64,000 bases of DNA, taken from the NCBI GenBank assembly GCA_964016885.1, contig OZ024741.1, positions 45,446,001 to 45,510,000 of the forward strand, read 5' to 3'. Under the pieces are notes generated by a model. The model made no database searches, was not told where the DNA came from, and saw only the letters and a list, made by a program, of their open reading frames with translations. Position 1 is the first letter of the stretch, and every line of letters starts with the position of its first letter. Below, in pieces: positions 20,399 through 64,000 of this stretch. Position numbers and translations under genes: made by a program. Source of the DNA: Eledone cirrhosa. Its lineage: Eukaryota.

Positions 20399-20436
20399 AA
20401 TAATAATAATAATAATAATAATTATTATTATTATTA

Positions 20437-20763
20437 TTCGACACCAGAGTGCAAGAGAAGGAGAGGGAGAAAATTAACCGATACCAGGACTTAAAGTGGG
20501 AGGTAAAAGGATTTGGAACTGCCATTAAGTCAAAGTGGTCCCGATTGTCATAGTCGCACTAGGTGCTATCTCAAAAGGTTTCCAGGGATGGTTAAAGAAA
20601 ATTGGCCCCGCCCCGATTTTTGGAACACTTCAAAAGGCATGCTTGCTGGGAACAGCAATAACTCTCCGATACGTCCTGAATATCTGAGGTTGCAGGTAGT
20701 GGCTTGATATTCATTTCAACAAACTTTCCAGTTAACTAACATCAATGACTGAGACTCAAAGAA
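20437..20763 (+). mobile_element. Dong family B 3' fragment (plus strand) with (TAA)n tail
   Basis: Reverse complement of family B 3' end (e.g. 25819-26143); tail 20764-20827. Confidence 0.9.
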
Positions 20764-20764
20764 C

Positions 20765-20811
<47 letters not shown>

Positions 20812-20843
20812 TAATAATAATAATAATTATTATTATTATTATT

Positions 20844-23800
20844 ACAGTTGCATTTATATTGCTTTATGTTCATACGAGTTATCACCAAGTCACAACCAGT
20901 GACCTCAAGAGACAACAAGGTCCGCCATGTTCAAGGAAGAACATACATACTCACACATGCATCTTTAGTGTTTAGACTTGTGATGTACTTATATTGACAG
21001 AATCTTCCTTAGTATATGGGCAGTTCCCATTAGTACTATCTTTTGTATTTCTCCGATACGCGGGTTTCCTGGGATCTGCGATAAGTAATCATTAGACCCC
21101 TTAGGTATCATTCCCAGAGCGATTACAACCACTGGTATTGTTTTAGTTCTCAATTTCCACATTTTTCCAATTTCTATCTCCAGATCCTTATACTTGCTCA
21201 ATTTTTCAAATGTTTTTATAGATACATTCTTGTCTATTGGAACAGACATATCAATTAGCAGGCATACCCTCTTTTTAAAGTCCTTCAATATTATATCAGG
21301 TCTATTTGCATCTATTTTTCGGTCTGTTTGGATGCTAAAGTTCCACAAGATTGAGATGTGATCTTTTTCAAGTATGGGAGGTGGTTGATGCTCCCACCAA
21401 TTCTTTTGATGGGGCAGGTCAAAATGCTTACACATTATCCAATGTATGTATTGTGCAGCTCTGTCATGCCTGTTTAGGTATTCGGTTGGAGCTATAGGAC
21501 TGCACATTGAAATTATATGGTCAATGGCCTCTGGTTGTTTTTTGCATACACGGAATAATGGGCTGCATCCATTTTTTATTATGTTGGCTTGGTAATTTTT
21601 TGTTGGCAGACACTGATCTTGTGCTGATATAATCAGTCCTTCAGTCTCCGATTTCAGTCCAGAGGATGCCAACCACTGATGGGTTAAAGTTTTGTCAACA
21701 TCAGGATTGTTAGCTCGCTCTGGGTATTTTCCATACAGAGGCTTTTCTTGCCATTTCTTAGCCAGTTTCTGTAGCAGTTCTTTCTTTGCAGTTACTTTTA
21801 CCTGCTTTGCTTTTTCTGTGTTTTCCATTTCAGCAGTAAATGGGACTTCTGAAATTTGTAGTCCATTACTGTATCTTTGTGCATCTTTTGTAATGGAATA
21901 TGATCTTTTGATGCTTTCGTGTTTCAAAACGAGTTTGATCATCCAATCATGTGATTCCCTTAGATATGTAGATAATCCAATTGTTGCAGTTTTCAACGCA
22001 ATGTCTAACTGGATTAACCCACGTCCTCCTTCTTTCCCAGGGAGATATATTCTATCTATATCTGCCTTAGGATGATGCATTCTGTGCATGGTTAAGAATT
22101 TTCGAATTTTTGTATCGAGCCTACGGATCTCTGTGCTTGACCAGTTGATGACATTGTAACTGTAGGTTACTACTGGTATGGCAAGCGTGTTTATGGCATC
22201 GATCCTATTCCTTGCATTCAATTCCGTTCTTAAGATTGCTCTTACTCTGCTGTAACATTCCTTCCTTATCCTTTCCCTCATTTTCGAGTGCTTGATTCCG
22301 TCTCCTTCACAAACACCTAGATATTTGTAAGTGTTTTCTTGATCAAGTTCTCTTATCACGTTCCCCCGATCAAGATTAATGTCTGAACTCTTCAGCAGCT
22401 TTCCTCGGGTGAACGTTGCTTTGGCGCATTTATCTAGTCCAAACTCCATTTTAATGTCATCACTGAACTGCTCCACAGTGGATAATAGCCATTGCAATTG
22501 TTCATCATTTTTTGCAAATAGTTTCAGGTCATCCATGTAGAACAGGTGATTAATGGTTTTGTCATAGACTTTATATCCATGTTTTGTTTCATTGAGCATT
22601 TTACTTAATGGTATAAGTGCGATGCAGAATAAAAGCGGTGATAAAGAGTCACCCTGAAAAATTCCACAATTAATATTAACTTCTCCAGCTTTCAGTGATT
22701 TTGTTTCACTATTTCAAAGGAGTGTCGTTTTCCATGTCTTCATACTGAATGACAAAAACCTCCTGACAACGGGGGATATTTTTAAAATCTCTAAACATTT
22801 TTCAATCCAACTGTGTGGCAAACTATCGAATGCTTTTTTATAATCTATCCAAGCAATCGATAGATTTTTGTGTCTATTATGACAATCTTCCAGTATCATT
22901 TTGTTAACCAGAAGCTGATCCGTACAGCCATATGAGCCTCGTTTACACCCTTTCTGCTCAATGGGAAATAGGTCATTTGTTATCAGGTGGTCATATGTGT
23001 ATTCAGTTAGGACTGATGGTAAAATATTATACATTGTGGTCAAGCAAGTTATCGGTCTGTAATTTTTTGGATTGTTTGTCTCATCATTCTTCGGAAGTAG
23101 GAATGTACTGCCGTTAACTAGCCATGATGGTATCTTTTCTGGCTCCTTAACTATTTCATTGTAAAGTTGGGCTAACAGCTCATGAGACTCTGTGAAGGCA
23201 TTTATCCAAAAGTTTTGTATTTTGTCTTTTCCTGGGGATTTCCATTTGCTGGTTTTTCTTAGAGCCAAGCGCAACTGTTCAACTGTTATATTTTCCCATA
23301 TTTGTTCCTCAAGGTGAGCTGTATCTTTCATTTGTCTGTCTATCCATGGGGCATGTACGTTATGAACTTTTTCTTCGGCCCAGATCTTTTCCCAGAATTC
23401 TTGCACATCCTCCTTGGGTGGTATTGATTTAGCAGTTATTGTTGACTTACCAATTTTTCTGTAGAAGTTTCTTTGGTTGTTTTTGAACATATTATTGTCC
23501 TTATAGAATCTAGATCGTTTTTCAAAGCGCCTTATACGAGCAGCTTTGGCCGACACTTTTTGCTTGATTATTTCTATCAGCATGTCTATGTTACATGTTG
23601 ATTTTATACTGTACTTTTTTTTCAATTTTCTAAGTTTTGTTTGTTTAACATGTTCACCTACTTTATAGTTTGTTAAAATTTCTATGTCAGATCGGAGAAG
23701 GTTTATTTGGCGATTGATGTTCTCTTGCCAAGTAGATTTCTTTTGGGAATTCCTTTGTTTTTTCATCTTCACTCCACATAAGTGAGTGGTGACTTTAGCC

Positions 23801-25784
23801 GATGCATAATAGAGATGATTTAAATCAGTAATGTTTAGTTTGTTTGTGATGATAATGTTTTTGAGAATTATGTTAGTCTTCTGTATTATCTTTTGGTTCT
23901 GTTTGGAGTTCTGGATCTTAGGGAAGGTGTCTCGTTGCCCCATGTCAGATTCTTTCATTTTCATCCATTCGATCATAATTTCATCCTTCAAGTTGGCAAG
24001 TTCATTCTCATTCATTTCTTTATCATTTACGATCTCATTATTTTCATTTGGAGTTTCATCCTGAGCATGCACGCCCTCCACTTTTTCGATCCTTTCTTTA
24101 ATTTGTTCTGTTGCCAGTGATTCCGCCCCAACCCTGAGGTTCGAAGTGTTACAGTTTACCTCGTTTTCACTGACACATGTTTCATTTTCCCTTCGCTGAC
24201 TTTGTGCTAATAGCTTGATCTGATCAATTTCTATATCAGTTAGTAACTTTTTTCTTACAATATTTCTTCGTATATTGGCTAGTTTCTTACTGTCAATATA
24301 GCCTCTGTTTTCGGGATGTTTCTTTTTCCAGTTGATATATGTCTGTTCTGTATTCGATGTATTTGATGGGTAGTACATGGCAGTGTAAAAAGCCTCAAGG
24401 ACTTCTTTATTATCTTCCCTTGACCATTTTCTCTCTTTTTCTTTGGATTTCTTGGTGGTGAGCATGGAGGGCCAACAGTAGGAGTATTCCGGTTATGGGA
24501 GGTTTCCAGCTCCGTAGTGATGGAAAGGTTTGAACCATTAGCTGATTTTTCGACCCCAGTCTGGTTCCTCTCTGAGGGACGCGGCCCTTTTTTACCCGGG
24601 TGACGGCCGATCCGGTATGAGATTTTATCATTAGACATTTACTTTATTTTGTCGCGTTTTCTCCTTATCCGCCAAGGGGTAATCATTTCGTGTTACCACT
24701 ACTTGAACGATTGTTAACCAAGACTAGAGGGGTCGTTCTCCCCTAGAGACACGGCTATTCCCCGCCGGCCGCCATCCCGGTATTTCTTGGTCACGGGGTT
24801 TTCTTTTTGTTGTTTTTTTTAAATTGTTATTATCATGAGTGGTTCCTTAATGTGAGCATTGCGTGGCTTAAGAATGAAATTATTAATAATTGTCTCCACT
24901 CCAGGCACAAGGCCAGCAATCACCCAGTGCATTACAATAATATAATATACTTTTTGCTGTAGTTGCCTGTTATTGTTGTTGGCTATGTCGGTGGTGGTGC
25001 CGGGGCTTTTTATATTGTTGGTGAGGAAGGGGTGAGCCAGCAGTCCCATAGTTGTTGATGTTGACGTTTGGCCGGTGGCCAGGTCACTAAGTCAATCTAT
25101 TTATATCTGCTAGCATCTCCCTTGTCTAGTGATACCGCCACCTTCCCCTTTCTCTCTCAAGTTAACAGGGGAATAGTGGTGGTAGCAATGAAGGAGTGGT
25201 GGCGGCGGCGATGGGATAGTGGTAGCAAGATGATGGATGGAGTGGTGGCGGCGGTGGCGTTGTGGTTACTGGGTTTTGTGATATGTAGTATCTATGAGTT
25301 TGTGTTCGTATGTTTAATATATATTGTGTTGACATATTCCCGTAAAATTGGAATTAAACATTTTGTTAAAATTTGAGACAATAATAATAGTAATTATTAT
25401 TATCATGCCGGGATTGATGGTGGTGTTGGTGAAATTGCCGTTATCTGGCTGTTATATTTAGTGTGATGGGATAGGTGGTGTATCAAGTTTCTGGTGTTGG
25501 TGAAATTGCTGTTATTTGGCTGTTCTATATAGTGTAGACAGAGGGTGTTTTCTTCCATTTATAACCATTTTCTTTTTTTGAATACAAAATATATAATACA
25601 AAATTGAATATTTGAGCGATATAACAATATAATATGGATCCGAAATTTTATGGGACTTCATTCGGTGGTTTATGCAACATTTGTACTAAGAATTGTTATT
25701 TCACAATTAATTTAAATATGTTAAAAATCATAAACTTACGGGAGCGATTTCATGACCTTCTACCACCTCGTGCGTCTTCTTCCC
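20844..25784 (-). mobile_element. Dong/R4-like LINE family A copy 1, full length
   Basis: Single long ORF region 24638-20989, ~1.1-kb 5' region, (TTA)n at both flanks. Confidence 0.92.
20989..24638 (-). pseudogene. RT + CCHC + PD-(D/E)xK restriction-like endonuclease, disrupted
   Basis: NYRPITCL, WIDYKKAFD, GIFQGDSLSP, YMDDLK, RHD, RPDI..D..P..K..KY.DL; frameshift near 24430 and in-frame TGA at 22714-22716. Confidence 0.92.
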
Positions 25785-25818
25785 TTATTATTATTATTAT
25801 TATTATTGTTATTGTTAT

Positions 25819-27359
25819 TCCTTGAATCTCAGTCATTGATGTTGGTTAACTGGAAAGTCCGTTCGATTGAATATCAAGCCACTACCTGCAGCCTCAGATA
25901 TTCAGGACGTATCGGAGGGTTCTTGCTGTTCCAAGCAAGCATGCCTTTTGAAGCGTTCCAAAAAGCGTGAAGGGGCCGATTTTCTTTAACCATCCCTGGA
26001 AACCTTTGGAGATAGTCCCCAGTGCGCCTATGACAATCGGGATCACTTTGACTTCATGGCAGTTCCAAATCCTTTTCACCTCCCACTTTAGGTCCTGGTA
26101 TCGGTTAATTTTCTCCCTCTCCTTCTCTTGCACTCTCGTGTCGAACGGGCAGGCCACATCCACAATCAGGCACGATCTTTTTTCTTTGTCCACAACCACC
26201 AGGTCAGGTCTATTGTGTTCCAGTTTTTTGTCCGTCTGTATCCTAAAATCCCACAGCACCTTCACCTGACTGTTCTCCATCACCGCCTCTGGCCTATGCT
26301 CATACCATTTCTCAGAATGTGGTAGATTGTTTACTTTGCACAGGTGCCAGTGGATCACCCTGCCCATCACATCGTGTCTCCAGCCCTTATAGTGGGTCTG
26401 GGCTAGGTGTTTACACTCGGACACAATGTGAGCCACAGTCTCCTCTCTCTCTCCACAGATCCTGCACAGTGGGCTAGCCTCCTCCTTGTAGATATGGTGC
26501 TTCAACCACTTCGTTTTGAGGGCCTGCTCCTGCGCAGCCATTAGCATTCCTTCTGTAGCCTTTTTGAGGTCTCCTCTTCTCAACCAGTTCCATGTCTGTG
26601 GATCTCTAAATTAAGTTTTCTCAAAGAAGGTACTATGAAGGGATTTTCCCTTAAGGCTGCTCTTCCTCCTTGATGTTATTTCCTTCTTGATGTTATTTCC
26701 TCCTTGGACATCCCCTGGTCTACTGTCCCCTCCTTCAGTACAGTTCTGAGCATTGGCTCCTTACTATAGGTCACGTATTTGTATAGGTTGTTTTTCTCCA
26801 TCTGAACACAGTCCTCTATGCTGATAAGACCTCTTCCACCCTCAGATCTCCTTAGGTAGAGTCTATCGACATCACTCCTCTTGTGGAACATGTTGTAGAT
26901 AGTCAATAGCTTCCTAGTCTTCCTATCCATTTCTTTTTGTTCAGCAACATTCCATCTCAGAATTCCCGCACTGTACCTAATAATAGACACAGCTCGGGAA
27001 TTTACTGCGCTTATGGCATTTCTGCTGTTCAGATGTGACTTCAATACGCTCCTTACTCTCCGAATGTATTCAGTTCTTAACAATTCCTTCATTTTTTTGT
27101 TCTTTATGCCATCAGCCTCCAGAACGCCCAAATACTTGTATCCTTCCTCAGAGTCAATTTCCTTTATCATCTCACCTGTTGGTATCTGGATCCCGTTACT
27201 TCTGCTCAACCTACCCCTCTTCATCACAATGACTCCACATTTACCAATACCAAACTGCATACATATATCACTGCTGAAAATACGGACAGTGTCAACAAGC
27301 ACATCCAACTCCTTCTCACTTTTCCCGAAGAGCTTAAGATCGTCCATGAAGAGGAGGTG

Positions 27360-27360
<1 letters not shown>
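25819..27360 (-). mobile_element. Dong family B, 5'-truncated at the FMDD motif
   Basis: ORFs 26676-27347 and 25894-26583; (TTA)n on both sides. Confidence 0.92.
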
Positions 27361-27404
<44 letters not shown>

Positions 27405-27420
27405 GTTATTATTATTATTT

Positions 27421-27790
27421 AGTTAAGCAAAAGTTGACAGGGGGATCATCAACAACAGATGGTGGGGTCTCTCAAAGGAGAGATTAGAGTAACTTCGATA
27501 GAGTTCAGCAAAGAACTAGCGTTAGAGCAAAATAGAAAGGCGGGGGAGCTGGTAGAAAAGTTACACGAGGCTATTTGTAGTGGCATTGCAACTGACGTGC
27601 TAGCGGCGAGAATGGCATTAGACCATTTCTTCAATGCGAAACACGAAGGTTGCATTGTCAGAGCTAAGGCGCGTGCGCTGAAAAAGAGGGAACCAAAGCT
27701 GTTCGATGGGCCCGCGTGGCGGAAGCGCAGCGTGGTAATAAAACCACAATTCGCTCTTTGGCGAATCGAGACAGACACGAGATAAGCGAC
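27421..27790 (+). mobile_element. Internal ORF2 fragment of a further Tx1 subfamily
   Basis: Encodes ...SIEFSKELALEQNRKAGELVEKL..GIATDVLAARMALDHFFNAKHEGC, homologous to but distinct from A/B/C. Confidence 0.85.
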
Positions 27791-27814
27791 TCACAGCTAC
27801 ACCAAGTAGCTGAG

Positions 27815-30800
27815 AGCCTCATACCAACATCACCATTGTAAATATCAGTACGTTTGCCAAAACTAAAAATATAAGCAGTAGCAATAATTTAAATTTGTCT
27901 CATGCAGACATTCATTTCCCGCCATTACCAATGACTGCAGGTGTTGAAGCCGCCATCCCCACCACCCCACAGCGACAACAGAAACAAAAGAAAAAAATAA
28001 ATTATCTCGTGACATCAAAATGGATTCACCCAGAATGGACTCTTCCACACCGAACACCACTGATGCGACCACCACCACAACTGAAACTAAAAATAACACT
28101 AACAAAAGTAACGATAACAACAACAGCAACAACAACAATGAGAATAACAACATCTTGTCTTTTGCCAAACAGTTAAAACATGCGAAACAATCCAGGTAAC
28201 TCAGGAGGAACTAGATGAAGCCAAGAAAATTGTAAAGAAAGATGGATACAGGGTCAGCCTCACCCCCCACCAAATAAAATGGACCATCGGTGCCTATGCA
28301 CCGTGTCTTATCGGACGATTAACATAAAATCGCGCCGAGTGGAACCGGCATCTGAGTCCCAAATCCAAAAAGCTTTGGGACATGTGTGGGCAAAAAAAAC
28401 CCACTTCAGACGTGGGAGAAATATGGAACCATGGACGTGTTCTTTGGAACACCACAAGAGGCCAGAGAACACTCCATGGCCCCATTAAGAAGTGACGACT
28501 TCACACTCGTCCTAAGCTATTGTGGCCAGAGACTCGTGAAAATCAGGGTGACCCACGTTCCACCGGCCATCGAAATTTCATGGCTAATAGCTGCCGTCCT
28601 CGCCAGCATCGAGGCCAACACCAAGATAATCGAAATAGCTAAAGAAAAGCAGGAGAACTGCTCCGGATCTGGGATGGAGCTCCTGATTCAAGCGGACCAA
28701 AAAAGCATTGAGGAGATCCCAGAGGTAATAGACCTCACTAACGGCAGCCACTCACGGTAATCGTCGAGGGAAGAAGGCCTAGGTGTGTTGTTTGTGGTGA
28801 AGGAGCCCACCTAAGGGCTTTGTGCCCTCAGGCTAAAAGGTTGAGGCCACCTTTCTTACCCACCCCAGTGACTCAACCATCAACACCACCAGCAGCAGAA
28901 ATGGCAGCAACAACTGTAGCAGCAACAACAGAAGCAACTGTAACAGCAACAATTCCAGCAACAGTAGCAAAACCAACACCACCACCACCCAACGCGCCAG
29001 AACTAGCACCAGGACCTACACGATCCAACACGCCACAACCCAAACCAACGCCTGTGAGGATTTTCCCCTCCCCGACCTATCGCAATTGGAGACCGATTGT
29101 GACGACGAGGAGTGGGAAACGGTATCAGGAAAAAAGAAAAAAAGAAAAAGAAGCCAAAAAAGAAAAAAATCCTCTTCCATCCCCCTCCAAAAACAAAATA
29201 CAATGGAAAACAAATAAACTATCAAACAAGAAAGTTAGGACAGCTATGCCACTATCCACACCAGCATCACCAACCCCATCACGACAAACACCAACACCAT
29301 CACCATCATTAACCCCAACACCACCATCACCAACACCACAAAAGTCACCAAAACAACCAAAACGATACAAAATACACAATATTAAATTTGAACAACAATC
29401 AATTATTACACTACATCCAACACAACACCAGCATCACAGAAAAAGACTACACAACACCCCAAAAGTTCACACCACCTCCACACATACAAATCACTCGAAT
29501 CACACAGAAAACGTACACGACACTAAAACAAAAATTCCCCAAAGACACGGAGACATCCAACAAGCACTCTGCAGGAGGATTTATAAGGACATCCTTCCGG
29601 AGGAGGCCACAAGCAGTGAAAAGGATGGAAAAACCATCCTTCCCCTACGAGAAGTAAGGTAAGTGGTCTTTCCCATCTTTTACACTCCATTTCAACATGA
29701 CCTCACTCAGAATAGGCAGCATAAAGGCGCGTGGCTTGGGGCAGTCATGGAAGCAAGGCCACCTGCTCAACGACCTCAGGTCACTAAACATAGATGTAGT
29801 GGCCATCAGCGAGATTAGAATCGCTGAAGCACGGGCCTTCGCACCGATCTTCGGCGACTACGATGTGTACGCATCTCCCAGCCGTTCTGGATCGGGGGGG
29901 AGGAGTTGCTGTGCTTTTTCGGAGAGGTTTGGATCTCGCCATACGGGCCATCTTCCTGGACCCAGAAGCTAAGTTGGTGGTGCTGGACGTGACCAGCGGA
30001 GCCGGGCAAGCCTTCAGGCTAGTGGCCGTCTATGACCCTACAGGAGCAGGACGGCCTGACATCTTCCGGCGTCTGGAGAACTTTCTTGGAACGTCTCGCT
30101 CTTTAGTGTTAGTGGGCGACTGGAACGGGATCTTAGATGCACGCTGGGACTGTGTGGGATTAGCCGATAGGGGAGGAGGGTGCAAGAGCCTCACCAACCT
30201 CCTCAGGCGTTTCGAACTGTCTGACAGGTACCGATTGGATTTCCCGAATGTGCCAATGTGGACTTGGACAAATCGTATAGGGTCATCCAGATCATATCTA
30301 GATAGAGTATTTTGTAGGGAAATACATAGGTCTAGCATAGGCTGTCCACAATTCAAGATAGTCAGTTACACGGACCACAAATTCGTGATCTGTGTGTTGA
30401 CTTATATAGGCTTCATAGACGAGGACCCGGCTACTGGAAGCTAAACGCGTCTTTACCAGCGCGTAAGGCCTACAGAGACCGGATTAGCGAACTAGTTAAG
30501 CGGGCTTTGACGGGGGCCATCGTCAACAACAAGTGGTGGTTTGCTCTGAAAACAGCGATTAGAATAGAGTCCATTAGGTTTAGTAAGGCTTTAGCAATAG
30601 AGAAAAATAGAGCAGAGGGAGAACTAGTTAGAAAATTAGACGAGGCCCTTAGCAAAGGCATCGCGACCGACGTACTTGCGGCGAAATTGGCCCTTGACCA
30701 ATTCTTCATGCAAAGCACGAAGGCTGCGTTGTCAGAGCTAGGGTGCTTGCTCTCAGACACGAGGGGGCGAAAGCCGTTCAATGGGCCCGAGTGGCGGAAG

Positions 30801-33338: not shown

Positions 33339-33350
33339 ATTATTATTATA

Positions 33351-33410
33351 AAGTACCAGTAACACACTGGTTAATTGCTGGCCTTGTGCCAAACGTAGAA
33401 ACAATTATTA
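33351..33410 (+). repeat. Short SINE-tail-like remnant; related copy on minus strand at 24880-24935
   Basis: cactgg..attgctggccttgtgcc...g.a.acaattattaat at both loci. Confidence 0.55.
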
Positions 33411-36400: not shown

Positions 36401-37105
36401 TTGCCCCATGTCAGACTCTTTCATTTTCATCCATTCGATCATAATTTCATCCTTCAAGTTGGCAAGTTCATTCTCATTCATTTCTTTATCATTTACGATC
36501 TCATTATTTTCATTTGGATTTTCATCCTGAGCATGCACTCCCTCCACTTTTTCGCTCCTTTCTTTAATTTGTTCTGTTGCCAGTGATTCCGCCCCAACTC
36601 TGGGATTCGAAGTGTTACAGTTTACCTCGTTTTCACTGACACATGCTTCATTTTCCCTTCGCTGACTTTGTGCTACTAGCTTGATCTGATCAATTTCTAT
36701 ATCAGTTAGTAACTTTTTTCTTACAATATTTCTTCGTATATTGGCTAGTTTGTTACTGTCAATATAGCCTCTGTTTTCGGGATGTTTCTTTTTCCAGTTG
36801 ATATATGTCTGTTCTATATTCGATGTATTTGATGGGTAGTACATGGCAGTGTAGAAAGCCTCAAGGACTTCTTTATTATCTTCCCTTGACCATTTTTCTC
36901 TCTTTTTCTTTGGATTTCTTGGTGGTGAGCATGGAGGGCCAACAGTAGGAGTATTCCGGTTATGGGAGGTCTCCAGCTCCGAAGTGATGGGAAGGTTTGA
37001 ACCATTAGCTGATTTTTCGACGCCAGTCTGGTTCCTCTCTGAGGGACGCGGCCCTTTTTTACCCGGGTGACGGCCGATCCGGTATGAGATTTTATCATTA
37101 GACAT
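33421..37105 (-). mobile_element. Dong family A copy 2, truncated exactly at the start codon
   Basis: Near-identical to 20844-24638; ~110-bp internal deletion near 36350; same in-frame TGA at 35290-35292. Confidence 0.92.
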
Positions 37106-37115
37106 TATTATTAGA

Positions 37116-37146
<31 letters not shown>

Positions 37147-37363
37147 GGCGACCTACGTAGTAAATCGTATCATCGTGAGCTCCGCAAAGGTTTGTTATTT
37201 CAGTTTGTTAAAAATTGTCATTTATTCATTTATGGAAAATTTTATTGTTAACTGTTTATAAGCGCACATACATTGTTTTCCGAAAAGGACACCCAAAAAG
37301 ATTGGGGCCTTGTGCCCAAAATTTAAACTTTTATTATTATCAAAAAAAATTTCTTAGAAAAAA

Positions 37364-39329: not shown

Positions 39330-39363
39330 GTGGTCTTTCCCATCTTTTCCACTCCTTTTCAAC

Positions 39364-45355: not shown

Positions 45356-45389
45356 GTGGTCTTTCCCATCTTTTCCACTCCTTTTAAAC

Positions 45390-48809: not shown

Positions 48810-49070
48810 ACTAAAGGTGGAAAACTGGGAGAGGGCACTTGCCTTGGTGGTCAGGGTCATTGTGGCTTTTTACTGGGCTTTCTCCACAAATGTCCCTCCG
48901 AAGTCTCCCCCCTATTGGGGAATTTTTCATTGTTATTTTCATCGTTATTTTTGTTACATCCTCTGTTTTTGTTTTTTTTACACGCAGAAATGCCCATTTG
49001 TACCGTCCTGCATTGTCCTGCACTGTCCTTAATGTCTACTTTATGTAAACCCTTGTGGTTAATAAAGAAA

Positions 49071-49071
<1 letters not shown>

Positions 49072-49152
<81 letters not shown>
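49072..49152. repeat. (TTA)n target/tail tract shared tail-to-tail by Tx1-B and Dong-B; one of ~11 such tracts
   Basis: Other tracts at 20399-20438, 20764-20843, 25785-25818, 27359-27420, 33338-33421, 37106-37146, 43026-43049, 53918-53978, 58503-58527, 59608-59666. Confidence 0.97.
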
Positions 49153-49154
<2 letters not shown>

Positions 49155-52100: not shown

Positions 52101-53917
52101 CGAATCTTGTCCTAGCCCGTCAGCATTCATCTCCTCAGTGGCCGTATCTCTGTTCCAGGTATTATTTATCTCAGTATTCAGATCATTGTCTGCTTCGGGT
52201 GGTTCCTCCGTTCTCTCGACCTCTTCACCTTCATTTCCCACTGGCTCGTTTGTCTGGCATACTCTATACTCCATCTCCAAGCTAATCTCTCTGCTCAGTT
52301 CCTCCAGTTCCAGCTCGCTTATCCACCCATTAGTTCTTATTACCCGAGCCTGCCCGGCCAATTTTTGTTCATCTAATTTAAATAGACCAATCTCGTTCCA
52401 GATGTTATGCATCCGTCTCCTATAGCCCCTCTCCTTGGGGTTACTTTTCAGGTAACATTGCATAACAGTTCTATTCAATTCTTTCGTCCAGTTGGTTCTG
52501 GTCCCTTTCCTTCTTCTTCTTCCTCCGACACCAGCAGTATTTGGTTGACAGCCAGGTTCCTGCTGCTGAGCCAGGGAGCACCTGTTGGGTGAGAGTCTGT
52601 CACATGACGTTCTAGTCTCCATTTCACCGTTATTCGAACTGTTCAGGTTCGATATTTAAACACTCTTATCGAGGATTGGCGAATGTATGGTTACATAGCC
52701 ATCTGTGGATTCACCGTCTCCGGCGGTTGCGCTGCTCCACTTGGCTCTTGTGTGGCATTATCACCACGCTGTAGACGAACACAAATAAACAAACAAACAA
52801 ACAGGCAGAAAAAAACCCAAAAATGAATAAGCATAAGTTTCATTGTAATGTAGTGTTCGAATGTCTGACTTAGTTTTTCCCTTCTCTTCTCTGTCCATCC
52901 GCTTGTTTCTCTCTTCATTCTTATTTTCTTTACGTTTTTTTTTGTTTTTGTTTTTCTCTGTTTGTTTTTCTCTTATTTTGCTGTTGTTGCTGTGCTACTT
53001 TGGTTTTGATGTTTGTTTTTTCTTTTGAGTCTATCTATATATTTTGATGCCTTCCTCTTTTTTAGTAGGAATTCTATAATGTGGTGGCAGCAACTAGCAG
53101 GAAGCAATGGGAGAGAATAGCGGCGGTAGCGATACTGAGACAGTGGTGGTGGTGATGTCGATACTGAGGCAGTGGTGGTGGTGATGTGATCGTATTACTG
53201 TAGTGATGGTGTTGTAGCGGTGGTAGCAATGAAGGAGTGGTGGCGGCGGTGATGGGATAGTGATAGTAATGATGGCAGTGGTGGTGGTGATGTGATCGTA
53301 TTACTGTAGTGATGGTGTTGTAGCGGTGGTAGCAATGAAGGAGTGGTGGCGGCGGTGATGGGATAGTGGTAGTAATGATGGATGGGCGGCGTTGTCGTTA
53401 CTGATGTCCGTTCGGTGAATCTATGGGGTTAGTCGCGTATATGTGTTGACATAAATTCCCTTGATGTTGGAATTAAACATTTTGTTAAAACTTGGGACAA
53501 TAATAATAGTATTTATTATTATCATTATTATGTTGAGATTGGTTGTGGTGGTGGTGAAATTGCCGTTATCTGGCTGTTGTGTTTAGTGTACACAGAGAGT
53601 AGATGGGGTAGGTGGTGTATCTAGTTTCTGGTGTTGGAGAGATTGGTGTTGTTTGGCTGTTCTATATAGTGTAGACAGAGGAGGGGGGGGGTTCTTCTTC
53701 TTCCATTTATAGCCATTTTCTTTTTTGAATATACAATGTACAATACATGGTTGAATATTTGAATATTTGAGCCTTATAACAATATATTTTGGGTCCGAAT
53801 TTTTTGGGGGGCTCAAGCCGGATGCTTTACGTAGCATTTGTACTAAGAGTTGTTATTCCACAAATGATTTAAATATGTTAAAAATACAAAACTTACGGGA
53901 GCGATTTCATGACCTTC
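49153..53917 (-). mobile_element. Dong family B copy 1, full length, frameshifted
   Basis: ORF fragments 52622-49228 with RT, CRIC..H...C and RPD motifs; 1.3-kb 5'UTR. Confidence 0.93.
52769..53896 (-). other. Candidate 5'UTR intron of Dong-B
   Basis: Donor GTAAGT at 53896-53891; long U-rich tract ending CTACAG at 52769; both conserved in copy 2 (58463, 57589), acceptor in copy 3 (63262). Confidence 0.55.
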
Positions 53918-53926: not shown

Positions 53927-53966
<40 letters not shown>

Positions 53967-53978: not shown

Positions 53979-56900
53979 CCTTGAATCTCAGTCATTGATG
54001 TTGGTTAACTGGAAAGTCCGTTGGAATGAATATCAAGCCACTACCTGCAGCCTCAGATATTCAGGACGTATCGGAGGGTTCTTGCTGTTCCCAGCAAGCA
54101 TGCCTTTTGAAGCGTTCCAAAAAGCGTGAAGGGGCCGATTTTCTTTAACCATCCCTGGAAACTTTTGGAGATAGTCCCCAGTGTGCCTATGACAATCGGG
54201 ATCACTTTGACTTCATGGCAGTTCCAAATCCTTTTCACCTCCCACTTTAGGTCCTGGTATCGGTTAATTTTCTTCCTCTCCTTCTCTTGCACTCTCGTGT
54301 CGAATGGGCAGGCCACATCCACAATCAGACACGATCTTTTTTCTTTGTCCACAACCACCAGGTCAGGTCTATTGTGTTTCAGTTTCTTGTCCGTCTGTAT
54401 CCTAAAATCCCACAGCACCTTCACCTGATCGTTCTCCATCACCACCTCTGGCCTATTCTCATACCATTTCTCAGAATGTGGTAAATTGTTTACTTTGCAC
54501 AGGTGCCAGTGGATCACCCTGCCCATCACATCATGTCTCCAGCCCTTATAGTGGGTCTGGGCTAGGTGTTTAGACTCGGATACAATGTGAGCCACAGTCT
54601 CCTCTCTCTCTCCACAGATCCTACACAGTGGGCTAGCCTCCTCCTTGTAAATATGGTGTTTCAACAACTTCGTTTTGAGGGCCTGCTCCTGCGCAGCCAT
54701 TAGCATTCCTTCTGTAGCCTTTTTGAGGTCTCCTCTTCTCAACCAGTTCCATGTCTGTGGATCTCTAAATTAAGTTTTCTCAAAGAAGGTACTATGAAGG
54801 GATTTTCCCTGAAGGCTGCTCTTTCTCCTTAATGTTATTTCCTCCTTGGACATCCCCTGGCCTACTGTCCCCTCCTTCAGAACAGTTCTGAGCATTGGCT
54901 CCTTACTATCAGTCAGGTATTTGTATAGGTTGTTTTTCTCCATGTGAACACAGTCCTCTATGCTGATAAGACCTCTTCCACCCTCAGATCTCCTTAGGTA
55001 GAGTCTATCGACATCACTCCTCTTGTGGAACATGTTGTAGATAGTCAATAGCTTCCTAGTCTTCCTATCCATTTCTTTTTGTTCAGCAACATTCCATCTC
55101 AGAATTCCCGCACTGTACCTAATAATAGACACAGCTCGGGAATTTACTGCGCTTATGGCATTTCTGCTGTTCAGATGTGACTTCAATACGCTCCTTACTC
55201 TCCGAATGTATTCAGTTCTTAACAATTCCTTCATTTTTTTGTTCTTTATGCCATCAGCCTCCAGAACGCCCAAATACTCATATCCTTCCTCAGAATCAAT
55301 TTCCTTTATCATCTCACCTGTTGGTATCTGGATTCCGTTACTTCTGCTCAACCTACCCCTCCTCATCACAATGACTCCACATTTGCTAATACCAAACTGC
55401 ATACATATATCCCTGCTGAAAATACGGACAGTGTCAACAAGCACATCCAACTCCTTCTCACTCTTCCCGAAGAGCTTAAGATCGTCCATGAAGAGGAGGT
55501 GATTGATGGTAAGCTCTCCCTTTCCCAACTTGTAGCCTGCTCTCACTTTTCGCAGCATAATGGTCAAGGGCATCAGGGCAAGGACAAACAACGGAGGGGA
55601 CAGGCTATCTCCCTGGAAGATACCTCTCTTGATCTTCACTCTTCCCAAGCATTCTCCAGTTGATGTCAACTCTGTCTCCCAGGACCCCATACTCCTGCCC
55701 AGCAACTGTCTGATGTTATCTGCCACATTGAAGATCTCCAGGCTTTTGGTGATCCAAGAATGAGGCACCATGCCAAATGCCTTTCTGTAGTCTATCCATC
55801 CCATGGCAAGATCAGTGTGTCTCCTCCTGCAATTCCCCATTACCATCTTATCAATAAGTAACTGGTCCTTTGTACCACGGGACTTCTTTCGGCATCCTTT
55901 CTGTTCGTCCGGTAACAAGTTGTTTGTGTGGAGGTGATGGTAGATTTCCTCAGACACAATGCTCGTCAACAGTTTCCACATTACGGACAGACATGTGATA
56001 GGTCTATAGTTGGTAACATCATTACCCTTGATTCGGTCTTTCATTATCAGAACTGTGGTACCTTTTGTCAACCACTCTGGCACCTCACGCGACACCAAGC
56101 AGTCATTGAACATGGCCGTCAGCTTCGGGTGGAGGGATGTTAAATTTTTAATCCAATACCCCTGCACACCATCTGGGCCTGGTGATTTCCAGTTGGTTAG
56201 TTTTTTGGCCTGCCCCTTAAGAGTTTCAACTGTGATACTCAAATCAGTTTGTTGGTGTGCCTGCTCACCGATCTCCCTCTGTACTGTCTCAATCCACCCT
56301 GCCTGGTCATTATGTCTAACATCCTGCTCCCATATTCCTCTCCAGAATGTTTTAGTTTGTTCCGCCCGAGGGATCAAGTCGTTGCCTCTTTCTTTCCCCT
56401 CAAGCTGTCCAAACAGCATCTTCTGGTTGTTGTCGAACATGCGGTTCTGTTTATACTGACTGACTCTGTTCTCGTATCGCCTGATTTTTGCACTCTTTGC
56501 TACAATGCGTTGCTTCAGTTCCTCTATGATAATATTTAGCTTTTTCCTCCTAGTTTTGTACTTTATTTCCAGTTATGTTTAGTGCCTGTTTTTTAGTGTC
56601 CCATTCAGAAGTGACTCAAGCTTTCCTATGTCATTTCTCATTTCCTTGATTTGACCACTCAGTCGTTTCTTCCACCAAGGCTCTGCTCTTTCTTGTCTGT
56701 TGTTTCCTCTCGCTTTTATACCAAGTAGTTTCCTCACCGTACTTGCTGTTGCTTTGAGGATATTGTTGCACTGGTGAAGGCTCCTCGCCTCAAAGTATGG
56801 GATGACTTTGTTTACCTTAGCTGTTGTTTCTTTTAACTTTTTCCTGTGTACAAATCTTAGGTTCATAGGTCTCCCACTATCATTGTTCAATTCATCTACC

Positions 56901-58502
56901 ACTAAATTTAGGATGTCAACCGAATCTTGTCCTAGCCCGTCAGCATTCATCTTCTCAGTGGCCGTATCTCTGTTCCAGGTATTATTTATCTCAGTATTCA
57001 GATCATTGTCTGCCTCGGGTGGTTCCTCCGTTCTCTCGACCTCTTCACCTTCATTTCCCACTGGCTCGTTTGTCTGGCATACTACACCCTCCATCTCCAA
57101 GCTATTCTCTCTGCTCAGTTCCTCCAGTTCAAGCTCGCTTATCCACCCATTAGTTCATATTACCCGAGCCTGCCTGGCCAATTTTTGTTCATCTAATTTA
57201 AATAGAACAATCTCGTTCCAGATGTTATGCATCCGTCTCCTATAGCCCCTCTCCTTGGGGTTACTTTTCAGGTAACATTGCATAACAGTTCTATTCAATT
57301 CTTTCGTCCAGTTGGTTCTGGCCCCTTTCCTTCTTCTTCTTCCTCCAACATCAGCAGTATTTGGTTGACAGTCAGGTTCCTGCTGCTGAGCCAGGGAGCA
57401 CCTGTTGGGTGAGAGTCTGTCACATGACGTTCTAGTCTCCATTTCACCGTTATTCGAACTGTTTAGGTTCGATATTTAAACACTCTTATCGAGGATTGGC
57501 GAATGTATGGTTACATAGCCATCTGTGGATTCACCGTCGCCGGTGTTTGCGCCGCTCCACTTGGCACTTGTGTGGCATTATCACCACGCTGTAGACAAAC
57601 ACAAATAAACAAACAAACACACAGGCAGAAAAGACCCCAAAAATGAATAAGCATAAGTTTCATTGTAATGTAGTGTTCGAATGTCTGACTTAGTTTTTCC
57701 CCCTTCTTCTCTGTCCGTCCGCTTGTTCCCCTCTTCATTCTTATTTTCTTACGTTTTTTTTTTTTTTTTTTTTTTTTTTTTTCTCTGTTTGTTTTTCTCG
57801 TTTTTTGCTGTTGTTGCTGTGCTGCTTTGGTTTTGTTGTTTGTTTTTTTCTTTTTTCTTTTGAGTCTATCTATATATTTTGATGCCTTCCTCTTTTTTAG
57901 TAGTAGGAATTCTATAATGTGGTGGCAGCAGCTAGCAGGGAGAAGTGGGAGACAGTAGCGGCGGTAGCGATACTGAGACAGTGGTGGTGGTGATGTCGAT
58001 ACCGAGTCAGTGGTGGTGGTGATGTGATCGTATTACTGTAGTGATGGTGTTGTAGCGGTGGTAGCAATGAAGGAGTGGTGGCGGCGGTGATGGGATAGTG
58101 GTGGTAATGATGGCAGTAGTGAGTGGTGGTGGTGAAATTGCCGTTATCTGGCTGTTTTGTTTAGTGTACACAGAGAGGTGATGGGGAAGGTGGTGTATCT
58201 AGTTTCTGGTGTTGGTGAGATTGGTGTTGTTTGGCTGTTCTATATAGTGTAGACAGAGGGGGGGTCTTCTTCCATTTATAGCCATTTTCTTTTTTGACTA
58301 TACAATGTGCAATACAAAGTTGAATATTTGAATATTTGAACCTTATAACAATATATTTTGGGTCCGAATTTTTTGGGGCTCAAGCCGGATGCTTTACATA
58401 GCATTTGTACTAAGAGTTGTTATTTCACAAATGATTTAAACATGTTAAAAATTCAAAACTTACAGGAGCGATTTCATCCACCATCTCGTGCGTCTTCTTC
58501 CC
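53979..58502 (-). mobile_element. Dong family B copy 2, full length, disrupted
   Basis: ORF fragments 57442-54053; 5' end ...gtgcgtcttcttccc abutting TTA. Confidence 0.93.
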
Positions 58503-58527: not shown

Positions 58528-59606
58528 TCCTTGAATCTCAGTCATTGATGTTGGTTAACTGGAAAGTCCGTTGGATTGAATATCAAGCCACTACCTGCAG
58601 CCTCAGATATTCAGGACGTATCGGAGGGTTCTTGCCGTTCCAAGCAAGCATGCCTTTTGAAGCGTTCCAAAAAGCGTGAAGGGGCCGATTTTCTTTAACC
58701 ATCCCTGGAAACCTTTGGAGATAGTCCCCAGTGCGCCTATGACAATCGGGATCACTTTGACTTCATGGCAGTTCCAAATCCTTTTCACCTCCCACTTTAG
58801 GTCCTGGTATCGGTTAATTTTCTCCCTCTCCTTCTCTTGCACTCTCGTGTCGAACGGGCAGGCCACATCCACAATCAGGCACGATCTATTTTCTTTGTCC
58901 ACAACCACCAGGTCAGGTCTATTGTGTTCCAGTTTTTTGTCCGTCTGTATCCTAAAATCCCACAGCACCTTCACCTGACTGTTCTCCATCACCGCCTCTG
59001 GCCTATGCTCATACCATTTCTCAGAATGTGGTAGATTGTTTACTTTGCACAGGTGCCAGTGGATCACCCTGCCCATCACATCGTGTCTCCAGCCCTTATA
59101 GTGGGTCTGGGCTAGGTGTTTACACTCGGACACAATGTGGGCCACAGTCTCCTCTCTCTCTCCACAGATCCTGCACAGTGGGCTAGCCTCCTCCTTGTAG
59201 ATATGGTGCTTCAACCACTTCGTTCTGAGGGCCTGCTCCTGCGCAGCCATTAGCATTCCTTCTGTAGCCTTTTTGAGGTCTCCTCTTCTCAACCAGTTCC
59301 ATGTCTGTGGATCTCTAAATTCAGTTTTCTCAAAGAAGGTACTATGAAGGGATTTTCCCTTAAGGCTGCTCTTCCTCCTTGATGTTATTTCCTCCTTCGA
59401 TATCCCCTGGCCTACTGTCCCCTCCTTCAGTACAGCTCTGAGCATTGGCTCCTTACTATAGGTCACGTATTTGTATAGGTTGTTTTTCTCCATCTGAACA
59501 CAGTCCTCTATGCTGATAAGACCTCTTCCACCCTCAGATCTCCTTAGGTAGAGTCTATCGACATCACTCCTCTTGTGGAACATGTTGTAGATAGTCAATA
59601 GCTTCC

Positions 59607-59608
<2 letters not shown>
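58528..59608 (-). mobile_element. Dong family B 3' fragment (~1.1 kb)
   Basis: ORF 58603-59598; TTA flanks. Confidence 0.92.
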
Positions 59609-59655
<47 letters not shown>

Positions 59656-59666
59656 GTTATTGTTAT

Positions 59667-62600
59667 TCCTTGAATCTCAGTCATTGATGTTGGTTAACTG
59701 GAAAGTCCGTTGGATTGAATATCAAGCCACTACCTGCAGCCTCAGATATTCAGGACGTATCGGAGGGTTCTTGCCGTTCCAAGCAAGCATGCATTTTGAA
59801 GCGTTCCAAAAAGCGTGAAGGGGCCGATTTTCTTTAACCATCCCTGGAAACCTTTGGAGATAGTCCCCAGTGCGCCTATGACAATCGGGATCACTTTGAC
59901 TTCATGGCAGTTCCAAATCCTTTTCACCTCCCACTTTAGGTCCTGGTATCGGTTAATTTTCTCCCTCTCCTTCTCTTGCACTCTCGTGTCGAACGGGCAG
60001 GCCACATCCACAATCAGGCACGATCTTTTTTCTTTGTCCACAACCACCAGGTCAGGTCTATTGTGTTCCAGTTTTTTGTCCATCTGTATCCTAAAATCCC
60101 ACAGCACCTTCACCTGACTGTTCTCCATCACCGCCTCTGGCCTATGCTCATACCATTTCTCAGAATGTGGTAGATTGTTTACTTTGCACAGGTGCCAGTG
60201 GATCACCCTGCCCATCACATCGTGTCTCCAGCCCTTATAGTGGGTCTGGGCTAGGTGTTTACACTCGGACACAATGTGAGCCACAGTCTCCTCTCTCTCT
60301 CCACAGATCCTGCACAGTGGGCTAGCCTCCTCCTTGTAGATATGGTGCTTCAACCACTTCGTTTTGAGGGCCTGCTCCTGCGCAGCCATTAGCATTCCTT
60401 CTGTAGCCTTTTTGAGGTCTCCTCTTCTCAACCAGTTCCATGTCTGTGGATCTCTAAATTCAGTTTTCTCAAAGAAGGTACTATGAAGGGATTTTCCCTT
60501 AAGGCTGCTCTTCCTCCTTGATGTTATTTCCTCCTTGGATATCCCCTGGCCTACTGTCCCCTCCTTCAGTACAGCTCTGAGCATTGGCTCCTTACTATAG
60601 GTCACGTATTTGTATAGGTTGTTTTTCTCCATCTGAACACAGTCCTCTATGCTGATAAGACCTCTTCCACCCTCAGATCTCCTTAGGTAGAGTCTATCGA
60701 CATCACTCCTCTTGTGGAACATGTTGTAGATAGTCAATAGCTTCCTAGTCTTCCTATCCATTTCTTTTTGTTCAGCAACATTCCATCTCAGAATTCCCGC
60801 ACTGTACCTAATAATAGACACAGCTCGGGAATTTACTGCGCTTATGGCATTTCTGCTGTTCAGATGTGACTTCAATACGCTCCTTACTCTCCGAATGTAT
60901 TCAGTTCTTAACAATTCCTTCATATTTTTGTTCTTTATGCCATCAGCCTCCAGAACGCCCAAATACTTGTATCCTTCCTCAGAGTCAATTTCCTTTATCA
61001 TCTCACCTGTTGGTATCTGGATCCCGTTACTTCTGCTCAACCTACCCCTCCTCATCACAATGACTCCACATTTACCAATACCAAACTGCATACATATATC
61101 ACTGCTGAAAATACGGACAGTGTCAACAAGCACATCCAACTCCTTCTCACTTTTCCCGAAGAGCTTAAGATCGTCCATGAAGAGGAGGTGATTGATGGTA
61201 AGCTCTCCCCTTCCCAACTTGTATCCTGCTCTCACTTTTCGCAGCATAATGGTCAAGGGCATCAGGGCAAGGACAAACAACAGAGGGGACAGGCTATCTC
61301 CCTGGAAGATACCTCTCTTGATCTTCACGCTTCCCAAGGATACTCCAGTTGATGTCAACTCTGTCTCCCAGGACCCCATACTCCTGCCCAGCAACTGTCT
61401 GATGTTATCTGCCACCCTGAAGATCTCCAGGCTTTTGGTGATCCAGGAATGAGGCACCATGTCAAATGCCTTTCTGTAGTCTATCCATCCCATGGCAAGA
61501 TCAGTGTGTCTCCTCCTGCAATTCCCCATTACCATCTTATCAATAAGCAACTGGTCCTTTGTACCACGTGACTTCTTTCGGCATCCTTTCTGTTCGTCCG
61601 GCAACAAGTTGTTTGTGTGGAGGTGATGGTAGATTTCCTCAGACACAATGCTCGTCAACAGTTTCCACATTACGGGCAGACATGTGATAGGTCTATAGTT
61701 GGTAACATCATTACCCTTGATTCGGTCTTTCATTATCAGAACTGTGGTACCTGTTGTCAACCACTCTGGCACCTCACCCGACACCAAGCAGTCATTGAAC
61801 ATGGCCGTCAGCTTCGGGTGGAGGGATGTTAAATTTTTAATCCAATACCCCTGCACACCATCTGGGCCTGGTGATTTCCAGTTGGTTAGTTTTTTGGCTT
61901 GCCCCTTAAGAGTTTCAACTGTGATACTCAAATCAGTCTGTTGCTGTGCCTGCTCACCGATCTCCCTCTGTACTGTCTCAATCCACCCTGCCTGGGCATT
62001 GTGTCTAACATCCTGCTCCCATATTCCTCTCCAGAATGTTTTAGCTTGTTCCGCCCCAGGGATCAAGTCGTTGCCTCTTTCTTTCCCCTCAAGCTGTCCA
62101 AACAGCATCTTCTGGTTGTTGTCGAACATGCGGTTCTGTTTATACTGACTGACTCTGTTCTCGTATCGCCTGATTTTGGCACTCTTTGCTACAATGCGTT
62201 GCTTCAATTCCTCTATGATAATATTTAGCTTTTTACTCCTAGTTTTGTATTTTATTTCCAGTTATTTTTAGTGCCTATGTTTTTTAGTGTCCCATTCAGT
62301 AGTGACTCAAGCTTTCCTATGTCATTTCTCATTTCCTCGATTTGCCCACTCAGTCGCTTCTTCCACCACGGCTCTGCTCTTTCTTGTCTGTTGTTTCCTC
62401 TCGCTTTTATACCAAGTAGTTTCCTCACCGTATTTGCTGTTGCTTTGAGGATATTGTTGCACTGGTGAAGACTCCTCGCCTCAAGGTATGGGATGACTTT
62501 GTTTACCTTAGCTGTTGTTTCTTTTAACTTTTTCCTGTCTACAAATCTTAGGTTCATAGGTCTCCCACTATCATTGTTCAACTCATCTACCACTAAATTT

Positions 62601-64000
62601 AGGATGTCAACCGAATCTTGTCCTAGCCCGTCAGCATTCATCTCCTCAGTGGCCGTATCTCTGTTCCAGGTATTATTTATCTCAGTATTCAGATCATTGT
62701 CCGCTTCGGGTGGTTCCTCCGTTCTCAGGACCTCCTCACCTTCATTTCCCGCCGGCTAGCTTGTCTGGCATACTACACCCGCCATCTCCAAGCCATTCTC
62801 TCTGCTCAGTTCCTCCAGTTCCAGCTCGCTTATCCACCCATTAGTTCTTATTACCCGAGCCTGCCCGGCCAATTTTTGTTCATCTAATTTAAATAAACCA
62901 ATCTCGTTCCAGATGTTATGCATCCGTCTCCTGTAGCCCCTCTCCTTGGGGTTACTTTTCAGGTAGCATTGCATAACAGTTCTATTCAATTCTTTCGTCC
63001 AGTTGGTTCTGGCCCCTTTCCTTCTTCTTCTTCCTCCAACATCAGCAGTATTTGGTTGACAGTCAGGTTCCTGCTGCTGAGCCAGGGGGCACCTGTTGGG
63101 TGAGAGTCTGTCACATGACGTTCTAGTCTCCATTTCACCGTTATTCGAACTGTTTATGTTCGATATTTAAACACTCTTATCGAGGATTGGCGAATGTATG
63201 TTTACATAGCCATCTGTGGATCCGCCATCCCACTTGGCCCTTGTGTGGCATTATCACCACGCTGTATACGGACACACATAAACAAACAAACACACGGGCA
63301 GAAAGGGCCCCAAAAATGAATAAGCATAAGTTTCATTGTAATGTAGTATTCGAATGTCTGACTTAGTTTTTGTTTTTTAAGTTTTACTTTTTCCCCCCTC
63401 TTCTCTGTCCGTCCGCCTGCTTCTCTCTTCATTCTTATTTTCTTTACGTTTTTGGGGTGTCTTTTTTTGTTTTTGTTTTTCTCTGTTTGTTTTTCTCGTT
63501 TTTTGCTGTTGTTGCTGTGCTGCTTTTGTTGTTTGTCTTTTCTTTTTTCTTTTGAGTCTATCTATCTATTTTGATGCCTTCCTCTTTGTTAGTAGTAGGA
63601 ATTCTATAATGTGGAAGTGGCAGCCAGCAGAGACTGGCGGCGTTGGCGATACTGAGACAGTGGTGGTGGTGATGTCGATACCGAGGCAGTGCTGGCGGTG
63701 ATGCGACCGTATTACTGTAGTGATGGTGCTGTAGCGGTGGCAGCAGCAGTGAAGGAGTCAAGGGGTGGTGGCGGCGGTGATGGGATAGTGGTGGTAATGA
63801 TGGCCGTAGTGAGCGGTGGCGGTGAAGGTGAAAATGCTGTTGTGTTTAGTGTACACAGATGATGGGGTGGGTGGTGTATCTAGTTTCTGGTGTTGGTGAG
63901 TTTCGCTGTCCTATATAGTGTAGCCAGAGGAGAGGAGGGGGGGGGGGGGTTCTTCTTCTTCCATTTATAGCCATTTTATTTTTTTGGGATATACAGTGTA
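59667..64000 (-). mobile_element. Dong family B copy 3 (runs off window)
   Basis: Colinear with copies 1 and 2. Confidence 0.93.
59742..62207 (-). CDS. Open 821-codon RT + CCHC + restriction-like endonuclease frame of Dong-B copy 3 (disconnected from N-terminal frame)
   Basis: WKSPGPDG, NYRPITCL, WIDYRKAFD, QGDSLSP, FMDD, CRICGEREETVAHIVSEC, RHD, RPDLVVVD..DVACP..EK..RYQDL. Confidence 0.88.
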   Translation of the reverse strand: MKQRIVAKSAKIRRYENRVSQYKQNRMFDNNQKMLFGQLEGKERGNDLIPGAEQAKTFWRGIWEQDVRHNAQAGWIETVQREIGEQAQQQTDLSITVETLKGQAKKLTNWKSPGPDGVQGYWIKNLTSLHPKLTAMFNDCLVSGEVPEWLTTGTTVLIMKDRIKGNDVTNYRPITCLPVMWKLLTSIVSEEIYHHLHTNNLLPDEQKGCRKKSRGTKDQLLIDKMVMGNCRRRHTDLAMGWIDYRKAFDMVPHSWITKSLEIFRVADNIRQLLGRSMGSWETELTSTGVSLGSVKIKRGIFQGDSLSPLLFVLALMPLTIMLRKVRAGYKLGRGELTINHLLFMDDLKLFGKSEKELDVLVDTVRIFSSDICMQFGIGKCGVIVMRRGRLSRSNGIQIPTGEMIKEIDSEEGYKYLGVLEADGIKNKNMKELLRTEYIRRVRSVLKSHLNSRNAISAVNSRAVSIIRYSAGILRWNVAEQKEMDRKTRKLLTIYNMFHKRSDVDRLYLRRSEGGRGLISIEDCVQMEKNNLYKYVTYSKEPMLRAVLKEGTVGQGISKEEITSRRKSSLKGKSLHSTFFEKTEFRDPQTWNWLRRGDLKKATEGMLMAAQEQALKTKWLKHHIYKEEASPLCRICGEREETVAHIVSECKHLAQTHYKGWRHDVMGRVIHWHLCKVNNLPHSEKWYEHRPEAVMENSQVKVLWDFRIQMDKKLEHNRPDLVVVDKEKRSCLIVDVACPFDTRVQEKEREKINRYQDLKWEVKRIWNCHEVKVIPIVIGALGTISKGFQGWLKKIGPFTLFGTLQNACLLGTARTLRYVLNI

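Follow-up and report, generated by a model that had tools for sequence, protein, structure and literature searches.

Several retrotransposons of the LINE type (long interspersed elements) insert into short repeats or other precise targets, and it is with these that we compare an array of Tx1-type and Dong-type LINEs found in a 64,000-nucleotide stretch of the Eledone cirrhosa genome (G000:C2:45446001-45510000, in an assembly of 3.0 Gb; the whole stretch is called the window below). Two elements in one repeat are known from Bombyx, namely TRAS1 and SART1, both of the R1 clade. They occupy the same short repeat in opposite directions, as do the elements here, but both have an APE endonuclease and their repeat is the telomeric (TTAGG)n (PMC7265360), whereas here an APE and a restriction-like endonuclease are found on dispersed microsatellites. 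Two endonuclease classes on one target are also known, from Keno (APE, Tx1) and Utopia (restriction-like) in U2 small nuclear RNA genes (PMC4640811); these, however, share the same 3' flank within a gene, and mixed arrays of opposite polarity do not figure in the available text of that paper. Dong/R4 elements have a single open reading frame (ORF) with a reverse transcriptase (RT) and a restriction-like endonuclease, and (TAA)n is stated to be the usual target of Dong in insects, molluscs and cnidarians (PMC3812793, PMC7998251). Among Tx1 families residing in microsatellites, Kibi uses (TC)n, Koshi (TTC)n, and crocodilian families (TTCC)n or (TTTC)n (PMC4494074). The Tx1-type elements of the present study resemble all of these in being L1-group APE elements in microsatellites, and differ from Kibi and Koshi in their repeats, (TTA)n in the array and (TATC)n in a sister family, neither of which is among the targets listed in the accessible part of that paper. 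Finally, Octopus vulgaris also harbours both LINE classes, recently active (Dong-R4 with 5 families and 1,129 insertions, L1-Tx1 with 13 families and 421 insertions), together with hotspots of transposable elements (PMC13282606), in an account that, as far as its available text goes, is given without target sites, polarity or arrays.

By comparing the window with itself and with a library made from its own elements, we mapped an array of 14 element pieces covering 47.6 kb, from position 20398 to near window position 68005 (the neighbouring stretch being included), where, about 4 kb outside the window, a truncated copy of the Dong-type family A is followed by a final (TTA)20. Tracts of 23 to 85 bases, TTA when read along the plus strand, separate the elements. 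The minus strand carries seven Dong-type copies (A1, B1, A2, B2, B3, B4 and B5), and the plus strand the four Tx1-type pieces (T0, T1, T2 and T3). The original prediction had spoken of about twelve TTA-joined insertions with exactly these orientations, of tracts shared tail to tail and head to head, and of an APE domain starting at 45390, and the mapping agrees with it on all these points, the head-to-head tract lying between A2 and T2 at 37105-37146. The one exception in polarity, B0, is flanked by two palindromic (TAA)n(TTA)n tracts, so that its own 3' end is still TAA despite its plus orientation. Copies in the window are 0.17 to 5.8% away from their nearest sampled relatives.

The same target and polarity are found genome-wide. 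Exact-pattern matching (reversed-pattern controls gave 0) retrieved 8,661 3' ends of the Tx1-type family, 10,066 of the Dong-type family B and 2,867 of family A; TTATT continues 7,712 of the Tx1 ends (89%), and TTATTATT precedes 2,502 of the 2,585 heads (96.8%) of subfamily TC, that of T3. Junctions were read at 281 loci outside the window, most of them chosen by element sequence and not by flank, with duplicates removed and with fragments below 85% identity and internal joins excluded. The Tx1 3' junctions are TTA in 79 cases out of 84 and never TAA (82 of 84 start with TTA, if sites without a tract are included), whereas the Dong 3' junctions are TAA in 131 out of 131. At the other end, TTA precedes all 53 full Tx1 heads and 17 of 25 5'-truncated ones (TAA 1, neither 7), and TAA precedes 21 of 28 full Dong heads (TTA never) and 56 of 67 truncated ones (TTA 0). 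By the identical rule, the background is 2.9% for TTA and 2.5% for TAA in 20-base windows of 40 evenly spaced 10-kb regions. The TTA ahead of full-length Tx1 heads is probably in part carried on the RNA, which leaves truncated copies as the only independent evidence of the target; since a truncated head cannot carry its flank on the RNA 5' end, TTA or TAA at that position reflects a real target. At imperfect sites, target duplications open with TTATT (about 18-21 bp at locus L002, 17-18 bp at L315). More than 20% of the flanks of the Tx1-type family are thus of one type, which is the threshold for target preference in PMC4494074. The (TC)n or (TTC)n of the Kibi/Koshi lineage is not the target here, which is (TTA)n; a few Tx1 copies adjoin (TTC)n (L033, L150, L309). 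A Tx1 family aimed at TTA at both ends, with a fixed polarity opposite to that of Dong, had been anticipated, and the survey of flanks and orientations revealed neither random insertion with TTA at the 3' end only nor random orientation. Separately, one dispersed sequence with an imperfect TTA tract has been struck by subfamily TC at differing positions on several chromosomes (L006, L021, L141, L159, L315).

Mixed arrays are routine across the genome, and the window locus is a large example. In a survey of the first 100 Tx1 ends and 96 B ends on C1 (47.4 Mb), 160 of the 196 ends lie in clusters, 35 of the 87 clusters contain both classes, and 44 of the 51 multi-copy clusters have one polarity. 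Twenty-two of the 100 Tx1 ends have a B end within 200 bp, in every case on the opposite strand; uniform chance would give 0.08 such neighbours, and local jitter 0.16. The idea of a landing pad for retroelements is supported as regards mutual landing, but the locus is no special site, the array being one of many in this genome. The pool of targets is small: tracts of at least 4 units number about 27 per Mb (11 in 400 kb, 3 of them adjoining Tx1 or Dong elements), compared with about 21,000 element ends, and those of at least 6 units were encountered 3 times in 400 kb (2 adjoining such elements). Among 27 position-ordered tail-to-tail pairs (8 listed pairs having been dropped from the dating, one partner being too short), the Tx1 partner is younger by more than one point in 9, the Dong partner in 6, and 12 are ties; the occurrence of both age orders supports the predicted mutual landing, each family likely inserting into the tracts of the other.

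The Dong copies are in fact two families, A and B, whose proteins are 39% identical. Both have a single ORF with an RT (RVT_1), a CCHC-like finger and an RPD..D..K motif, and no Exo_endo_phos domain; the best solved relatives of family B are R2 proteins (E 7.5e-31), ahead of L1 (1e-13). By eye, their N-terminus shows a Trp-spaced segment and no zinc finger, to be compared with the divergent, finger-less Myb/SANT-like N-terminal domain described for the R4/Dong clade (PMC7998251). Architecture and the (TAA)n target, rather than a tree with named references, lead us to assign A and B to the R4/Dong type. With their single ORF and (TAA)n target they resemble Dong of Bombyx mori, DongAg, the snail DongBg and an ostracod Dong; unlike these, they form two families with a common 365-nt head. 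The Bombyx element has an HDV-like (hepatitis delta virus-like) ribozyme (PMC3774820), and none was found in the A/B or Tx1 heads with Rfam and a simple descriptor, both insensitive, the descriptor being used without a positive control. Dong 5' junctions often carry short repeats of the element's own first bases or (GAA)n runs (L092, L094, L096, L068, L101, L120; window 37096-37117).

In T1 to T3, an ORF1 with a zinc knuckle precedes an ORF2 with APE, RT and zf-RVT domains, so that the catalytic motifs of both endonuclease types, APE and restriction-like, are found in the window elements. A CCHC zinc knuckle in ORF1 is a feature of the Tx1 clade. The best solved match of ORF2 is human L1 ORF2 (E 1.6e-51), ahead of R2 (2e-21); the label Tx1 is suggested by the architecture, the level tested being the L1 group. 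T2 and T3 are 95.5% identical in their ORF2 half and have neither 5' UTR (untranslated region) nor ORF1 in common, which is the reverse of the situation in A and B, with their similar head and divergent proteins. The T0 piece is joined to the truncated T1 without a tract (27420-27817), and a like join exists at L157:2408-9057; a template switch is possible. The coordinates of all these elements are collected in Table 1.

Table 1. Elements, tracts and coding regions of the array and the sister element TD, in window positions
Feature	Position	Strand	Description
TD	15355..19554	-	sister Tx1-type element outside the array, 5'-truncated; ~70% DNA identity to T1-T3; (TATC)n in own sense at both ends
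Left edge tract	20398..20436		palindromic (TAA)8(TTA)5
B0	20436..20766	+	5'-truncated family B 3' end, sole polarity exception, in TAA half of palindromic tract
Second palindromic tract	20767..20844		(TAA)14CAA(TAA)5(TTA)6: B0 tail, likely duplicated palindrome centre, A1 tail
A1	20845..25784	-	full-length Dong-type family A; ~1.1-kb 5' UTR, RT, CCHC, PD..D..K endonuclease; one in-frame stop in RT region
Head of A1	25420..25784 (B3 counterpart 58123-58502)	-	365-nt 5' head, 80% alike between families A and B
B1	25820..27362	-	family B, 5'-truncated
T0	27420..27776	+	piece from within ORF2, fused to T1; belongs to a more distant Tx1-type family (74-76% to T1-T3)
T1	~27817..33339	+	oldest Tx1-type copy of the array, 5.8% from nearest sampled relative, frameshifted
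SINE piece	33349..33405	+	3' piece of a short interspersed element (SINE), polarity as Tx1
A2	33421..37106	-	family A without 5' UTR, 110-bp internal deletion
T2	37147..43026	+	full-length Tx1-type, subfamily TB; ORF2 open, ORF1 broken; 5' UTR and ORF1 unlike T3
T3	43050..49073	+	full-length young Tx1-type, subfamily TC; both ORFs open; 0.17% from nearest sampled copy
T3 ORF1	43265..45355	+	696 aa, CX2CX4HX4C zinc knuckle
T3 ORF2	45390..48809	+	1139 aa: APE endonuclease, RT (YADD), C-terminal CCHC/zf-RVT
Tail-to-tail tract	49074..49153		(TTA)26, common to T3 and B2
B2	49154..53917	-	family B, near full-length, ORF broken
B3	53979..58502	-	family B, full-length, ORF broken
B4	58529..59608	-	family B, 5'-truncated
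B5	59668..64000	-	full-length family B, runs 516 bases beyond the window; 839-aa open stretch with RT, CCHC, PD..D..K endonuclease

Outside the array, the window also holds two remnants: one, Penelope-like and bearing a GIY-YIG domain, lies at 3041-4610 on the minus strand and scores below the Pfam cut-off (E 2.7e-4); the other, at 12755-13833 on the plus strand, is old, of the R4 type, and resembles family A at about 63%.

Two other families bear on the interpretation. The first is that of TD, for which a first look gave 1,252 candidates across the genome and whose copies often form head-to-tail stacks (L172-L199): 25 of 29 located 3' ends start with TTTATC (from 30 loci, one end not being found and one locus being the window's own), and 15 of 20 truncated heads have TATC-type flanks, by eye. 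The second is an abundant SINE of about 190 nt when full length, with thirty 3' ends in 400 kb of evenly spaced DNA. These ends continue with ATTAT in 26 of 30; target duplications of 10-20 bp were seen in 17 of 30 (one mismatch allowed, no null computed), every one starting with ATTA or TTAT. In register, 13 of its last 22 bases match the Tx1 end (background 0.0017 per position), compared with 6 for A and B, and folding revealed no stem-loop in common between the Tx1 and SINE 3' ends. The SINE is likely a Tx1 passenger, judging from these sequences; if this is true, the enzyme motif would be short and SINE ends would be able to seed tracts. A SINE-like 3' end also occurs within the family A 5' UTR (window ~24870-24935), with a similar motif in the 5' UTR of T2 (37300-37340).

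We think that the anatomy of the array, its target and polarity, the differing ages of its copies and its recurrence throughout the genome probably reflect separate insertions by two LINE classes into (TTA)n/(TAA)n in opposite orientation, likely via priming on opposite strands. In target-primed reverse transcription, the strand that is nicked is complementary to the RNA, so that priming should take place on the TAA strand for Tx1 and on the TTA strand for Dong. In this scheme the Dong-type restriction-like endonuclease would nick the TTA strand first and an RNA end with UAA repeats would pair there, whereas the Tx1-type APE endonuclease would nick the TAA strand first, probably at a short AAT motif, and the UUA end of its RNA would pair with the primer so freed. 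Such pairing is suggested by the 3' junctions that start with TTA even without a tract, and the Tx1 enzyme itself may recognise a short ATTAT motif instead of an extended tract. Each insertion would duplicate or lengthen a portion of the tract, so that two tracts would then be available to both classes and, long tracts being scarce, later copies would accumulate next to earlier ones. The SINE, too, is likely moved by the Tx1 machinery, and its short ATT ends could seed new sites.

Several points weigh against this scenario. The assignment of first nicks to opposite strands is deduced from the orientation of the elements under target-primed reverse transcription. TTATT is missing from eleven per cent of the Tx1 3' ends, some of which abut (TTC)n, (CTA)n or just one TTA unit. 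In the 120 loci that are position-ordered or evenly spaced, truncated Tx1 heads have TTA in 5 of 11 only (5 have none, 1 has TAA), so that the specificity of Tx1 looks looser than in the pooled sample. Of the 51 multi-copy clusters on C1, 7 are of mixed polarity; ages are only roughly measured, from the nearest copies within a sample of a few hundred; and the link between the SINE and Tx1 rests on 13 matching bases out of 22. Finally, the endonuclease hairpin tunes target specificity, and the hairpin region is 81% identical between TD and T3 (57-64% in the rest of ORF2); with this region so alike in a TTA family and a TATC family, the enzyme may not set the repeat.

This last point leads to a different view of the Tx1-type elements, in which their endonuclease is loosely specific and the site is chosen mainly by pairing of repeats borne by the RNA, namely UUA at its 3' terminus and the upstream repeats at its 5' terminus; the array would still arise as described above. 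Full-length heads indeed join TTATTATT in a fixed phase, in all 41 sampled cases as in the genome-wide count, even when (TTC)27 or one TTA only (TTAGCC) follows the 3' end and there is no normal duplication (L309, L310), which makes it likely that the upstream repeats ride on the RNA. The short endonuclease hairpin differs at two positions between the TTA and TATC sister families, in a comparison that is partial since the TD endonuclease is frameshifted in the window. Similarly, in 21 of the 30 random SINE copies no more than one TTA unit follows the end, but the 17 SINE duplications of at least 10 bp fit a nicking motif too, by their ATTA or TTAT starts. As an exchange of endonucleases switches specificity in TRAS1/SART1 (PMC7265360), we consider RNA aiming rather unlikely as the main determinant. 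We are equally doubtful about its broadest version, according to which the repeat is set chiefly by units at the RNA ends with a loose endonuclease, sister families switch between TTA and TATC by changing these ends, and most of the long TTA tracts in this 3-Gb genome are jointly generated and reused by the TTA family, the SINE and the two Dong families, in arrays with read-through RNA antisense between the classes.

One could also imagine that the array has grown by local tandem duplication, or that Tx1-Dong pairs move together. B4 and B5 are 99.1% identical; however, for each of them a copy on another chromosome is at least equally close (0.46% and 0.25%), and every copy in the window has its own 5' end and junction, so that tandem duplication of the window array was rejected. 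As to joint movement, the ages of partners in tail-to-tail pairs are modestly correlated (rho 0.45, p 0.018; Mantel rho 0.29, p 0.02), and a small sample had suggested that the two travel as one unit, an idea rejected with more pairs, since in 0 of 24 are both partners nearest to one and the same other pair. The pair data fit a process in which each class inserts on its own into tracts newly left by the other, and do not fit duplication or travel as a unit. Although C2 carries a run of five or more TC copies with a recurring spacer, tandem duplication and joint movement are largely refuted for the window and seem to us very improbable. That run (L316-L319, G000:C2:124755000-124790000), with copies 99.4-99.8% alike where compared, a spacer of 126-159 bases and a variable left junction, may itself represent local retrotransposition of an RNA starting upstream of the element. 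Finally, a host trap resembling a piRNA (PIWI-interacting RNA) cluster and kept for silencing is hardly credible, for if the window array, with 9 Tx1/B end motifs, exceeds all 87 clusters of the C1 survey (at most 6 in any), and if read-through RNA of one class would, given the opposite orientations, be antisense to the other, the commonness of two-class clusters shows such arrays to be routine, and this one holds only TTA-seeking families and one SINE piece where a trap should gather unrelated elements.

Separate insertion by two classes in opposite orientation, the interpretation that we favour, is new in part. In our full-text search of the literature (Repbase, Dfam and supplements being outside its scope), neither a Tx1 family specific for (TTA)n or (TATC)n nor a mixed Tx1-Dong array came to light. 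As far as we searched, the novelty thus lies in a TTA target for a Tx1-type family, shared with Dong in opposite polarity, each ingredient having a precedent. The choice of microsatellites by APE-type LINEs has been described as poorly understood (PMC3812793), and this genome offers a direct test set. It contains a young copy in which neither ORF is interrupted, no fewer than 2,585 heads of that copy's subfamily, a closely related sister family residing in a different repeat, and a SINE that is likely a passenger; in particular, the TTA and TATC families could serve to separate aiming by the enzyme from aiming by the RNA. More generally, the process proposed here would account in a simple way, without a host trap, for LINEs accumulating locally and for the long TTA tracts of such genomes.

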